Assembly: GCF_003667345.1 (NCBI RefSeq)
Contig: NZ_RCWF01000011.1
Coordinates: 17,951-49,950 of the forward strand
Origin: Poseidonibacter antarcticus
GTDB taxonomy: Bacteria; Campylobacterota; Campylobacteria; Campylobacterales; Arcobacteraceae
DNA length: 32,000 nt
Direction of reading: 5' to 3'
Shown here: positions 12,451-16,205 of the stretch, in pieces
Layout of the letters: each line of letters begins with the position of its first letter
Numbering within the stretch: the stretch's first letter is position 1
The notes under the pieces: generated by a model
The model's input: only the letters and a program-made list of their open reading frames with translations
The model's database searches: none
What the model was told of the DNA's origin: nothing
Translations under genes and position numbers: made by a program

Positions 12451-13764
12451 ATGAGTAAAATAATGAATAATAAAATCTTTAAACCATTTCTAAACGAAAA
12501 TACAGATACCCTTAATTTTATAAGATACAACACAATTGGAAAAAATAAAAAAGAGTATTTTGATTATACTGCAACAGGTTTAGCCTTTAGACAAATAGAA
12601 AATAGAATTCATAATGTATTAGAAACTTATGCAAATACACACTCAAAAGAAGCTTCTAATGCTGATACTACAAGTAGTTATTATGAAATGGCAAGAGCTA
12701 AGCTAGCAAAAAACTTAGAAATTGATGAAAACTTTGCAATACTTCCTAATGGTTGTGGAACAACTGCTGCTATTAAACATTTTCAAGAGCTTTTAGGGCT
12801 ATATATACCACCTGCAACAAAAAAAAGATATAGTATTGAAGTTGATAAATCAAAGCTCCCCTTGGTCATTGTAGGACCTTATGAACATCATTCAAATGAA
12901 GTTTCTTTTAGAGAAGCATTATGTGAAATACAAAGAATAAATTTAAGCCAAAATGGCTTAATAGATTTAGAACATTTAAAAGAAGTCTTAGAAAAAAATA
13001 AACATAGAGAAATAATAGCTTCTTTTTGTATAGCCTCAAATGTTACAGGAATTATTACAAAATATGAAGAGATTTCAAAAATCTTACGAAAATATAATGC
13101 TATAGTTTGCTTTGATGCAGCAGCTTCATCTCCATATATAAATATTCCATCTCATCTTTATGATGCTATGTTTATGTCACCTCATAAGCTATTAGGTGGT
13201 CCTGGTTCATGTGGACTTTTAATAATTAGAAAATCCTTAGTTGATACCAATTTATCTCCAAGTTTTGCAGGTGGTGGAACAGTACAATATGTAAATAAAA
13301 AACATCAAATTTACGAAAAAGATATTCAAACAAGAGAAGATGCAGGAACACCTGGTATTTTGCAATTAATACGAGCAAGCTTAGCATATCAGTTAAGAAA
13401 TGAAATTGGTTTTGATTTTATAGCCAAAAGAAAAAAGATATTAAAAAAGATATTTTTAAATGGACTTTTAGAAATTCCTAATTGTAAAATTTATGGGAAT
13501 GCAAATGAAGATAATATTGGAATAATTTCTTTTAATATTGAAAATATAGACCCATATGAACTATGTTCTAAATTATCAAAATCAAAAGGTTTTCAAACAA
13601 GAGCAGGATGCTCATGTGCTGGACCTTATGGTCATGATTTACTAGGAATTGAAGAGTTAGATTTAGAGAATAAACCAGGATGGATTAGAGTTTCTATACA
13701 CTTCTCACAAACAAAAGAAGAAATTTTAGAACTAATCAAATCTATTAAGAGTATTGTTAACTAA
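12451..13764 (+). CDS. aminotransferase class V-fold PLP enzyme (cysteine desulfurase/selenocysteine lyase-like)
   Basis: ANTHSKEASNAD, FDAAASSPY and SPHKLLGGPGSCG (PLP lysine) blocks; C-terminal RAGCSCAGPYGH. Confidence 0.75.
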   Translation: MSKIMNNKIFKPFLNENTDTLNFIRYNTIGKNKKEYFDYTATGLAFRQIENRIHNVLETYANTHSKEASNADTTSSYYEMARAKLAKNLEIDENFAILPNGCGTTAAIKHFQELLGLYIPPATKKRYSIEVDKSKLPLVIVGPYEHHSNEVSFREALCEIQRINLSQNGLIDLEHLKEVLEKNKHREIIASFCIASNVTGIITKYEEISKILRKYNAIVCFDAAASSPYINIPSHLYDAMFMSPHKLLGGPGSCGLLIIRKSLVDTNLSPSFAGGGTVQYVNKKHQIYEKDIQTREDAGTPGILQLIRASLAYQLRNEIGFDFIAKRKKILKKIFLNGLLEIPNCKIYGNANEDNIGIISFNIENIDPYELCSKLSKSKGFQTRAGCSCAGPYGHDLLGIEELDLENKPGWIRVSIHFSQTKEEILELIKSIKSIVN

Positions 13765-13950
13765 TCTTAACCTTTTGTTTAAGATTCATTAATCATTTAG
13801 CTATATAATTTCTTTATGAATTTCATGACATTTATATCAGTTTATGTTCTATTTTTTTCAAATTAAATACATATTATCCAGACGAAACTGATTTATAAAC
13901 TTGATTTCAGACAAAAAGTAAAAGTATCCTAGCATTTATAATATAATTTT

Positions 13951-14097
13951 AGTGGTTTCCTCCTATCTCCACTTATGCAAGATACAAGCCAGTCGTCCCA
14001 AACTGGCTATACTTTCTCCTTTCCCTTTGCCAAAAGGGGATAATTTCTTTTTCATTCATTCAAACAATTTTTCGAGAAATTATCCCTTTTGGTTTTC
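13951..14097 (+). ncRNA. candidate structured CU-rich small RNA (possible antitoxin/antisense regulator)
   Basis: Two overlapping TATAAT boxes at 13937-13947. Hairpin AGTGG-(tttcctcctatct)-CCACT at 13951-13973 and hairpin AGCCAGT-(8 nt)-ACTGGCT at 13987-14008. Single-stranded ACTTTCTCCTTTCCC, then an 18-bp stem with one bulge (14030-14048 / 14075-14092) followed by TTTTC. No credible ORF. Confidence 0.3.
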
Positions 14098-14113
14098 ATA
14101 CAATCAAAATAAT

Positions 14114-14209
14114 TTATTTTATGATAAAAGCAAAACTTAAAGCAACTGCTATAAATTCAATCGCAACTACAATAATATAATCTTTGATATTTGTATTAAT
14201 ATTTTTCAT
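14114..14209 (-). CDS. 31-aa hydrophobic small protein (type I toxin-like candidate)
   Basis: My minus-strand translation is MKNINTNIKDYIIVVAIEFIAVALSFAFIIK*. AAGGAG SD 5 nt upstream of the ATG; a polar N-terminus followed by a ~20-residue hydrophobic helix; not in the supplied ORF track (too short). Confidence 0.35.
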   Translation of the reverse strand: MKNINTNIKDYIIVVAIEFIAVALSFAFIIK

Positions 14210-14223
14210 TTTTTCTCCTTTTT

Positions 14224-14254
14224 ATAGGAGAAAAAATCTCCTATTATTTTTTTG
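14224..14254 (+). terminator. plus-strand rho-independent terminator; on the minus strand the same hairpin is the 5' leader of the small ORF
   Basis: ATAGGAGA-aaaaa-TCTCCTAT 8-bp perfect stem followed by TATTTTTTTG. Confidence 0.5.
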
Positions 14255-14325
14255 TTTTATATAAATATTGTCTAATCCTAAATGCCATCATATCGGACAT
14301 ATAAACCCTTTTGTCTAAAAATTTT

Positions 14326-14365
14326 GTAAAAAAAAAGGGAAGAGCTAAGAAGCCCTTCCCTTTTT
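14326..14365. terminator. bidirectional terminator (ends typA on the minus strand)
   Basis: A-run, GGGAAGAGC-taagaa-GCCCTTCCC (9-bp stem, one mismatch), T-run; located 26 nt downstream of the typA stop. Confidence 0.8.
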
Positions 14366-14390
14366 AAAAATAGATAAAATCTAATTTTTA

Positions 14391-16205
14391 TTAAGCAAAT
14401 TTAGTCTTTTTAGCAGTTCTTTTTCTAATATTTGGATCAAGATCTCTTTTTCTTACTCTAATCGATACAGGTGTAACTTCAACAAGTTCATCTTCTTCAA
14501 TCCATTCTAATGCATTTTCAAGTGACATAACTCTTGGTGGAATTAATTTAATAGCTTCATCCGCACCCGAAGATCTAACGTTTGATTGTTGTTTAGCTTT
14601 AATTGGATTGATATCTAAATCATTCCCTTTAGCATGTTGACCAACTACCATTCCGTTATAAACTTTATCTTGAGGTTTAATAAACATAACCCCTCTATCT
14701 TGTAAGTTAAAGATTGAATAACCAACAGCTTCACCATTTTCCATAGAAACTAATGCTCCATATTTTCTAGATTCAACAGTTCCAGAATGAGGTCTGAATT
14801 CTAAGAATGAGTGGTTCATAACACCCTCACCTTTAGTTTCAGTTAAGAACTCAGTTCTAATACCAATTAATCCACGTGCAGGAATTTCAAACTCTAATCT
14901 TGTAGAACCAGCACCCATTGGTACCATGTTTGTCATATTAGCTTTTCTTTTCCCTAATTTTTCAATAATTGCACCTGAAAATTCATCTGGTGTATCAATT
15001 ACTAAATGCTCAAATGGCTCCATTTTAACACCATCAATAATTCTTACGATTACTTCTGGTCTACCAATAGAAAATTCAAACCCTTCTCTTCTCATATTTT
15101 CAGCAAGGATACAAATTTGTAATTCCCCTCTTCCGTTAACTTTGAATTTACCTTCACCAATTTGCTCATAATTCATAGCAATATTAGTATTCATTTCAGC
15201 AGTTAATCTTTCATCAATTTTATTTGATGTTACATATTTACCTTCAGTTCCAGCTAATGGAGAATCATTTACTGCAAATGTTACAGATAATGTAGGTTCT
15301 TCAATATGCATAGGGTCTAATGGCATTGGATCTACAGGATCACAAAGTGAATCACCAACATCAATAGTTTCAAAACCAGCAACAGCAACAATATCACCAG
15401 TACCAGCAGTTTGAATATCAAATCTATCAACACCTTTAAAACCAATAAGTTTAGTAACTCTACCTTTAACTTTTTCGCCATTTGATTTAACTAAAAGAAC
15501 AGTTTCACCCATTGAAATTGTTCCATTAAAGATTCTTGCAATACCAATTTTTCCAATGAAGTTATCGTAATCAAGTGTAAATACTTGTAATTGAAGACCA
15601 TTTTCATCTGCTCCAACTGGTTTTGGAACTTCGTTTAGAATAGTTGTAAATAATGGAATTAAATTCTCATTTGGATCTTCTAAAGCTAATTTAGCGTATC
15701 CATCTCTAGCAGCTGCATAAACAACTGGGAATTCTAATTGTTCTTCACTAGCACCCATTTGGTCAAATAGGTCAAATACTTCATCAACAACTCTATCAGC
15801 ATCTGAACCTGGTTTATCAATTTTGTTAATAACAACAATTGGTCTATGTCCTAATTGTAATGCTTTTTTAACAACAAATTTTGTTTGAGGCATAACACCT
15901 TCTTGAGCATCTACTAGTAAAAGTACACAGTCAACCATTTTAAGAACACGTTCAACTTCTCCACCAAAATCAGCATGGCCTGGAGTATCAATAATGTTAA
16001 TTCTTACACCTTCGTAATCAATAGCAGTATTTTTAGAAAGAATTGTAATTCCTCTTTCTTTTTCAATATCATTACTATCCATTACTCTTTCATCTACTTC
16101 TTGGTGAGCAGTAAAAGTTCCTGATTGTTTTAATAATTCATCTACTAATGTAGTTTTACCGTGGTCAACGTGCGCGATAACCGCAATATTTCTAATATCT
16201 CTCAT
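14391..16205 (-). CDS. typA: translational GTPase TypA/BipA
   Basis: [36 protein letters not shown] and NKIDK GTPase motifs; 604 aa; full-length BipA architecture. Confidence 0.95.

Follow-up and report, generated by a model that had tools for sequence, protein, structure and literature searches.

The gap between an aminotransferase gene and typA in the bacterium Poseidonibacter antarcticus probably consists of two separately inherited elements that were joined by the internal deletion of a third gene. Under this proposal, the minus strand carries a real gene for a 31-amino-acid membrane protein, whose synthesis is gated by upstream translation, and the plus strand carries the remnant of a metallophosphoesterase (MPE) gene. 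We studied this gap within a stretch of 32,000 nucleotides (contig NZ_RCWF01000011.1, positions 17,951 to 49,950 of the forward strand), which we will call the window; coordinates refer to the window unless a related locus is named. An earlier note on this DNA had proposed that the gap hides a type I toxin-antitoxin (TA) module, in which a 31-codon open reading frame (ORF) faces a structured, CU-rich small RNA (sRNA). All of the sequence features that were described there are present. It is also true that the flanking genes converge on the gap and that neither of them explains it. We propose that a third gene, the deleted MPE gene, does.

The gap is 626 bp long and is flanked by the aminotransferase gene (12451-13764, plus strand) and by the convergent typA (14391-16205, minus strand). 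We fetched related loci via the aminotransferase protein, which yielded 29 loci from genomes and 52 from metagenomes (numbered with the prefix L), and we compared the gap to these loci with blastn. This divided the gap into two parts that are inherited separately. The first part, from 13765 to about 14097, holds all three of the plus-strand hairpins and is always found directly downstream of the aminotransferase gene. The second part, from about 14103 to 14390, holds the small ORF and adjoins typA. Neither the gap (at E <= 10), nor the whole window, nor three related loci matched any family in Rfam, except for chance matches of the terminator type.

The first part of the gap is homologous to a protein-coding gene. 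In Aliarcobacter-type loci, the homolog of 13773-14092 is the start and the first ~93 codons of a 372-amino-acid membrane protein, and the intact protein from the metagenomic relative L033 matches the calcineurin-like metallophosphoesterases (PF00149, 63.8 bits). In more than 40 loci, either the MPE gene or its remnant lies directly after the aminotransferase gene. In the window, the decayed first ~95 codons of this Metallophos-family gene occupy 13816-14099 on the plus strand. They contain in-frame stop codons and one frameshift, and they include all three hairpins and both CU-rich runs. If we use the MPE protein from L026 as a tblastn query, we obtain two high-scoring segment pairs, at 13816-13980 and 13977-14099. 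The remnant is 76% identical, without gaps, to the intact gene from L033, and blastn aligns the two at 80% identity over 336 nt, promoter included.

Both ends of the MPE gene can still be found. The promoter region (13765-13815, plus strand) is 84-94% identical among the relatives that bear a remnant and the intact L033. Both the -10 element (TATAAT, 13804-13809) and the former ATG, which begins at 13816 after an interval of 6 nt, are retained. At the other end, the last codon and the stop codon are still recognizable at 14100-14110, within a junction that also includes a spacer (14100-14113, plus strand; the 3' end of the L033 gene reads TCATAAATCA and the window reads TCATACAATCA). Because both ends are retained, the window appears to have undergone an internal deletion of MPE codons ~96-369. 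Also, substitutions among the remnants are spread evenly across the three codon positions (.25/.22/.24, versus.19/.11/.42 among intact genes), so the remnants have evolved as non-coding DNA. By these comparisons, the "structured CU-rich RNA" appears to be the promoter and decayed 5' end of an MPE gene and not a dedicated sRNA gene, and its motifs pre-exist as codons in the intact orthologs. We also considered whether a small peptide could be made from the retained ATG, but we rejected this idea, since the potential peptides differ in length and sequence among relatives and L004 has lost the ATG.

The MPE genes appear to be leaderless, as they lack a Shine-Dalgarno (SD) sequence and the ATG comes 6 nt after the end of a TAYAAT -10 element. 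This layout is seen at 13800-13818 of the window, at 5430-5448 of L026, at the equivalent sites in L015, L023, L043, and L067, and in all of the intact orthologs.

The plus strand of the remnant does have a striking fold. The region 13950-14105 folds at -37.5 kcal/mol (z = -5.3), and none of 200 shuffled sequences folded equally well; the fold of the minus strand is weaker (z = -2.7). As had been described, the minimum free energy (MFE) structure has three hairpins, a 13-nt CU-rich loop, and an unpaired run, although we find that the third stem has about 20 base pairs instead of 18. We propose that the CU-rich runs are former codons of transmembrane helices and that the hairpins arose from inverted repeats that were already in the intact orthologs. 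For instance, remnant hairpin 1 (13951-13973, plus strand; AGUGG/CCACU around the 13-nt loop UUUCCUCCUAUCU) corresponds to GVLLYP codons in L033, where GTC CTC CTA TAC encodes VLLY. Remnant hairpin 2 (13987-14008, plus strand; AGCCAGU...ACUGGCU) is built from the codons for P-(V/I)-V-P-N-W, which are PIVPNW in L033. The single-stranded CU-rich run that follows (UACUUUCUCCUUUCCC, 14009-14029, plus strand) consists of former YFLLSLP codons (TAC TTC CTC CTT TCC TTA CC in L033), and remnant hairpin 3 (14030-14097, plus strand), which has a 24-nt loop and is followed by UUUU (UUUUC), consists of PIGIIF...HEIISFG codons in L033.

These structures vary in how well they are conserved. Across relatives, remnant hairpin 1 is paired in just 51% of alignment cells. 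Remnant hairpin 2 is paired in 87% of the cells from remnants, and one of its pairs alternates between A-U and G-C. The CU run is a peak of conservation among the remnants (0.82-0.92). The core of hairpin 3 is conserved in the intact MPE genes, and its outer extension (CCAAAAGG/CCUUUUGG) is specific to the window. Because the stem of hairpin 3 is symmetric (CCAAAAG...CUUUUGG), its inner part has a U-run after it whichever strand is read. Covariation in homologous intergenic regions had been suggested as a check on these structures. It is weak for the remnants themselves and good for hairpin 3 in the intact genes.

Two other features of the plus strand had been taken as signs of an antitoxin RNA. 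The two overlapping TATAAT boxes (13937-13942 and 13942-13947, plus strand), which were proposed to be its promoter, do exist, but they are former LILYIT codons. They lie in the trough of the conservation profile (mean pairwise identity of 0.47-0.52) and are deleted in L003, so we rejected this promoter. The other feature is complementarity to the SD sequence of the small ORF. The segment ACUUUCUCCUUUCCC is unpaired in the plus-strand fold, and UUUCUCCUUU is indeed an exact 10-nt complement of AAAGGAGAAA at the SD of the small ORF. This 10-mer occurs only three times in the window, and one of these is at the SD of another gene (16421). The match is real, and its target appears to be a generic strong SD, AAAGGAGAAA.

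We noticed three other structures in this region. A 3-nt insertion that is specific to the window creates a second, canonical terminator-like hairpin at 14021-14040 on the plus strand (UUCCCUUU-GCCA-AAAGGGGA, followed by UAAUUUCUUUUU), which competes with the 5' arm of hairpin 3. In L031 (2930-3002), the tail of hairpin 3 overlaps the stop codon of the small ORF, and hairpin 3 could be a shared bidirectional terminator both there and in the window. Finally, an invariant long-range stem joins 13817-13841 to 13886-13910 (UGAA..UCA/UGA.UUCA and AUCAGU/ACUGAU), around a poorly conserved apical region. This stem is common to all of the remnants and to the intact gene of L033, but not to the more distant intact genes.

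The remnant and the small ORF do not have a conserved adjacency. They abut only in the species of the window (L082-L087) and in L031. In L002, L003, L004, L005, L030, and L032, the remnant is still next to the aminotransferase gene and the small ORF is still next to typA, but 0.5-3.5 kb of differing genes lies between them. Furthermore, among the 38 loci that have an intact MPE gene and at least 400 nt of sequence downstream of it, 29 lack the small ORF. These comparisons indicate that the juxtaposition is the product of a deletion and is not a conserved arrangement, and that the CU run and the long hairpin occur independently of the small ORF. The view that the remnant and the small ORF form one module is thus not supported: the adjacency was lost in most lineages, and the intact genes that bear the motifs mostly occur without the small ORF.

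In contrast, the small ORF itself fared well. As the earlier note stated, the minus-strand ORF from 14209 to 14114 is preceded by an AAGGAG SD (14220-14215) and a 5-nt spacer, and its translation, MKNINTNIKDYIIVVAIEFIAVALSFAFIIK, has a polar head (NINTNxKDY) and then one hydrophobic transmembrane helix of ~20 residues. By a profile search against all of the short ORFs in the related loci, we found 19 homologs of 27-34 amino acids, all in Arcobacteraceae. Their consensus is M-x(0-3)-[EK]-N-I-N-T-N-K-K-D-Y, followed by a single transmembrane helix. Every difference in length is a multiple of three, and the SD and the ATG are conserved. The proportion of nonsynonymous differences (pN) is 0.02-0.27, compared to 0.28-0.66 for synonymous differences (pS), and this frame is the only one that is open in all 18 sequences that were tested. 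The gene has been under coding selection, and we conclude from its sequence conservation that it is a genuine, conserved, and previously unnamed gene for a single-transmembrane protein of the Arcobacteraceae.

The earlier note considered this ORF to be probably unannotated. It does lack a named family: three members of the small-protein family had no match in Pfam or NCBIfam at E <= 10. The identical 31-amino-acid peptide is among the predicted proteins of 8 metagenome contigs, where its context is the same. An exhaustive search of 1.8 billion representative proteins gave only two matching clusters, which are near-identical. A tblastn search of plasmid sequences with the peptide gave no match. 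The gene is single-copy and is found at a syntenic chromosomal site: in the Poseidonibacter clade it comes after typA, and in Aliarcobacter-type loci it lies after hsp20, with the phosphoesterase gene convergent to it. We suggest that the encoded protein acts as an accessory membrane protein with a link to stress, rather than as a dedicated toxin.

The leader of the small gene can form two predicted structures that are mutually exclusive, as they compete for a single anti-SD strand. In leader hairpin 1 (14224-14244, minus strand; AUAGGAGA/UCUCCUAU), an SD-like 5' arm (AUAGGAG) pairs with an anti-SD 3' arm (CUCCUAU), which leaves the true SD free. In helix 2 (14208-14237, minus strand), the anti-SD strand AUUUUUUCUCCU (14237-14226) pairs with AGGAGAAAAAAU (14219-14208) instead. 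The anti-SD arm and the U-rich loop of hairpin 1 then mask the SD, the A-run, and the AU of the AUG. In the Poseidonibacter clade, helix 2 has 12 base pairs and a predicted stability of -13.7 kcal/mol, versus about -11 kcal/mol for leader hairpin 1. Helix 2 is both the MFE structure and the RNAalifold consensus. According to these models, the mRNA leader can sequester its own SD.

The comparison of homologous intergenic regions supports both of the leader structures. One pair of helix 2 covaries across lineages, from U-A to A-U to G-C, and L032 has a U-G pair in helix 2, as read on the minus strand. Leader hairpin 1 shows compensatory changes between Poseidonibacter (AUAGGAG/CUCCUAU) and Aliarcobacter (AAGAAGGA/UCCUUCUU). 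It is more stable on the minus strand than on the plus strand in 14 of 18 sequences, and it has 8 G-U pairs on the minus strand versus 2 on the plus strand.

An upstream frame ends within this structure. In the window, it is an upstream ORF (uORF) of 18 amino acids (MSDMMAFRIRQYLYKTKK, 14244-14300, minus strand), and the 5' arm of leader hairpin 1 includes its stop codon (14246-14244). All 11 of the Poseidonibacter-clade loci have a uORF of 11-18 amino acids with a conserved MSD or MLD start, and these uORFs always end at the TAA of TAATAGG. In the 7 Aliarcobacter-type loci, the stop codon of hsp20 takes the place of the uORF's stop codon. Altogether, the upstream frame stops inside leader hairpin 1 in 18/18 sequences. 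The uORF and the small ORF do not overlap; they are separated by 34-48 nt. We considered whether the uORF could be a remnant of hsp20, but comparing hsp20 to the window with tblastn did not reveal any such remnant near the small ORF.

We propose that upstream translation controls whether the small protein is made. In one state, the pseudo-SD would pair with the anti-SD, as leader hairpin 1, and the SD would be free. In the other state, helix 2 would form between the anti-SD plus the U-run and a segment made up of the SD, the A-run, and the first two bases of the start codon (AU), and translation would be blocked. Because the upstream frame ends inside the 5' arm of hairpin 1, the ribosome that finishes that frame (the uORF here, or hsp20 in Aliarcobacter) would decide which helix forms. 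The direction of this gating is itself an inference. Further upstream, between the terminator of typA and the leader, there is a near-invariant block of 70 nt (14261-14330, minus strand). It is almost identical in 8 species whose four-fold degenerate sites are only 56-80% identical. This block holds the 5' part of the uORF and two copies of the direct repeat TTAGACAA, and it could be a regulated promoter or the 5' untranslated region (UTR) of the small gene.

The intact MPE genes carry an unusual signal in the region that corresponds to the hairpins. Codons ~51-80 form an island of high G+C content at third codon positions (GC3), with GC3 of 0.40-0.45 as compared to 0.16 for the whole gene. 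Within the CU run of 33 intact genes, CTC is found in 23 and TCC in 21, yet these codons have genome-wide frequencies of 1% and 2.5%, respectively. More broadly, the rare codons CTC, TCC, GTG, GGG, and ATC are seen across codons ~51-93 (at 5575-5745 of L026 and in 32 other intact MPE genes). In the core of hairpin 3 (codons 73-93), 93% of the cells are paired and there are 5 compensatory pairs, which include synonymous changes (ATC/GAG for ATT/GAA). None of 500 shuffles equaled this. Because of its G-U pairs, hairpin 3 is a structure of the plus (mRNA) strand. The identity at synonymous sites along the intact genes shows neither a dip nor a peak at codons 50-95; just the GC3 island stands out. 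The signal could reflect a translational pause for membrane insertion, or an RNA element that persisted after its host gene was lost.

Several observations weigh against our reading of the gap. On the minus strand, the mRNA of the small gene might begin only after the uORF, and promoter DNA might account for the near-invariant block. Also, the Watson-Crick covariation of helix 2 and of hairpin 1 fits a plus-strand RNA equally well, and the assignment of the leader helices to the minus strand depends on a few G-U pairs, so it is somewhat soft. As for the plus strand, the conservation of the remnant is higher than one would expect of junk DNA, which suggests that the remnant may be a functional RNA, perhaps with a regulatory link to the small ORF. 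Between the window and a ~97% identical strain (L082 and L083), the synonymous divergence (dS) is 0.12 for the aminotransferase gene and 0.07 for typA, yet the 285 nt of the remnant have just 4 differences (1.4%, as compared to dS of 7-12%). The conservation is also uneven: it peaks at the promoter and first codons, at both arms of the long-range stem (ATCAGU/ACUGAU), in the CU run (0.92), and along the 3' arm of hairpin 3, with variable loops and stretches in between.

It is possible, although less likely than not, that the remnant is now an independent RNA of ~285 nt, which would start at the former ATG (13816), extend to hairpin 3, and derive by exaptation from an RNA element that was already embedded in the 5' part of the MPE coding sequence. 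Such an RNA might act as an sRNA with an anti-SD-like seed, or as the 3' UTR and terminator of the aminotransferase mRNA, and in neither role would it be specific to the small ORF. Nine lineages keep exactly the segment from the promoter to hairpin 3, despite differing cargo downstream, and the promoter's conservation (84-94%) also fits this idea. Two other intergenic regions diverge by 3-6% within the species. Like an sRNA gene, the remnant has a conserved promoter and a hairpin with a U-run, and the intact genes have the GC3 island, the rare codons, and the synonymous covariation in hairpin 3. But across the remnants, the three 3' hairpins are 72% paired, versus 69% for shuffled sequences, and they show few compensatory changes. 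The neutral baseline is uncertain, as the identity at four-fold degenerate sites is 0.56-0.65 for the aminotransferase gene and 0.74-0.80 for typA, compared to 0.72-0.78 for the remnant. Recombination between species is also evident for two of the loci: the remnants at 5315-5655 of L002 and 2427-2767 of L005 are 96-97% identical, while their aminotransferases are 84% identical as proteins and 61% identical at four-fold sites, which implies recent recombination. Finally, the rare codons and the hairpin of the intact genes could be a pause signal for membrane targeting.

Another explanation for the small gene's surroundings is cis-antisense control, which we consider rather unlikely. Here, transcription across the ORF and its SD would end at a plus-strand hairpin and T-run at 14224-14254. 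The source would be the 3' UTR of a convergent gene (ancestrally the MPE mRNA, and in the window read-through from the MPE promoter) or else a short RNA that starts inside the ORF. If leader hairpin 1 is read on the plus strand, it is indeed a terminator-like hairpin (14224-14244) that is followed by UAUUAUUUUUUU up to 14254, just past the SD, and as the earlier note pointed out, it could be where an antisense transcript ends after spanning the entire ORF. The MPE gene of L033, of L023, and of the Aliarcobacter loci stops ~10-30 nt from the small ORF's own stop codon, so the transcript of MPE must extend through the ORF in antisense orientation. In L002, L005, and L004, the small ORF's stop codon is 12-13 nt away from the ends of other plus-strand genes. 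And as the MPE promoter is retained in the window, read-through could still cover the small ORF. On the other hand, in L003 and L015 the downstream neighbor is co-directional with the small gene, so there is no convergent source, and the T-run is weak in L015. Leader hairpin 1 is more stable on the minus strand, which is also where most of its G-U pairs are found. In a plus-strand transcript, helix 2 would be the first to form and would compete with the terminator. Promoter-like hexamers occur at the rate expected by chance in AT-rich DNA (7 found versus 6.9 expected).

The original proposal, of a type I TA pair in which the 31-amino-acid peptide would be the toxin and the CU-rich RNA from the plus strand the antitoxin, now seems very improbable. 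Such an antitoxin would act in trans on the SD or via 3' ends that overlap at a shared hairpin 3, as in par/Fst. Much about the locus does resemble such a system: there is a small (<60 amino acids) gene for a hydrophobic, membrane-targeting peptide, helix 2 is predicted to fold the mRNA so as to block translation by sequestering the SD, the 10 nt of UUUCUCCUUU complement the SD region, and the symmetric hairpin 3 could terminate both of the convergent transcripts in the window and in L031. The remnant also looks constrained, and both elements are kept in 9/9 remnant-bearing lineages. But no dedicated antitoxin RNA gene stays linked to the small gene across relatives. The CU motif and the hairpins are ancestral coding sequence and occur in the 29 loci that lack the small ORF, the adjacency is lost in most lineages, the proposed promoter and remnant hairpin 1 are not conserved, and the complementarity appears to be to a generic SD. 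The gene's single copy, its syntenic chromosomal site, and the lack of plasmid matches also argue against a TA system. The peptide did not match any known toxin family (Hok/Gef, Ldr, Fst, TisB, Ibs, or ShoB) in Pfam or NCBIfam, with AapA not explicitly compared. The conserved polar motif TNKKDY and the linkage to hsp20 fit a small protein that binds a partner better than they fit a pore-former. Although the module as it was stated is not supported, toxicity is still a candidate property of the peptide. A variant of this idea, which we also consider improbable, if slightly less so, is that the first 285 nt of MPE were a structured RNA with an anti-SD-like, CU-rich seed, were selected as such within the coding sequence, to which the rare codons and the synonymous covariation would point, and survived the deletion of the enzyme gene as a riboregulator that now shares a bidirectional terminator with the small gene and represses it. 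If so, this would be a type I TA-like or sRNA/small-protein module that was born from the remnant of a gene.

Our favored reading, of a gated small gene beside an MPE remnant, can also be compared to known systems. Some type I TA loci have convergent RNAs that overlap at their 3' ends, namely par/Fst (RNA I and RNA II of pAD1) and txpA/RatA and bsrG/SR4 of Bacillus subtilis. Like these, the gap has a gene for a hydrophobic peptide of ~30 amino acids whose SD could be sequestered within its mRNA, a structured, RNA-like region that faces this gene, a hairpin with the potential to terminate transcripts from either strand, and a short complementarity to the SD. Unlike them, the opposite-strand element is a decayed gene fragment with motifs that are older than the juxtaposition, neither the adjacency nor the antitoxin promoter is conserved, and the gene is single-copy at a syntenic chromosomal locus. 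The leader is reminiscent of hok/mok/sok and of other cases of leader-controlled SD sequestration, in that an upstream frame ends before the small gene, within the structure that controls the SD, and alternative helices compete for one anti-SD strand. But in contrast to hok/mok/sok, the uORF does not overlap the small ORF, a full-size hsp20 is the upstream frame in Aliarcobacter, there is no fbi/tac long-range pairing, and a Sok-like antisense RNA is just hypothetical. We searched the literature for type I TA systems in Arcobacter and for small proteins or maps of transcription start sites in Aliarcobacter, and we found nothing relevant.

The small protein itself is more like the chromosomally-encoded small membrane proteins of bacteria, such as AcrZ, MgtS, KdpF, CydX, and, from Campylobacter, CioY. 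Like these, it has ~30 amino acids and a single transmembrane helix, is conserved across a family under purifying selection, is linked to stress genes, and was missed by standard annotation. Unlike these, it has no similarity to named families, and no gene for a partner complex is adjacent. It defines an unannotated family of small membrane proteins in Arcobacteraceae, with a bistable leader that is supported by covariation and with an upstream-ORF arrangement. This makes it a concrete case for the translational gating of a small protein, with linkage to hsp20 or to typA.

Finally, some sRNAs derive from degraded genes or from the ends of mRNAs. The remnant shares with these its retained promoter, a non-coding segment of ~285 nt, a terminator-like hairpin with a U-run, and its uneven conservation and low diversity within the species. 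It differs from them in that its covariation is weak and that the element was structured while it was still coding. A remnant that looks constrained raises the possibility that an RNA element of a coding region can outlive its host gene. It also suggests caution in scanning for RNAs from sequence alone: a striking fold (z = -5.3), CU-rich loops, and complementarity to an SD can all derive from the transmembrane codons of a deleted gene, and it was synteny in relatives that exposed this origin.

We also noted a few features of the neighborhood. A putative bidirectional intrinsic terminator of typA lies at 14330-14366 (not assigned to one strand), as judged from its sequence and from partial matches to terminator-type families in Rfam. 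The site between the MPE gene or its remnant and the small ORF seems to be a hot spot for gene turnover (L002-L005, L015, L030, L032, and L043). Its cargo includes a sodium:solute symporter in L003, an EamA protein with an AraC-type regulator in L002, L005, and L030, two other genes in L004, three genes in L015, and 0.5-0.9 kb of other DNA in L032 and L043.

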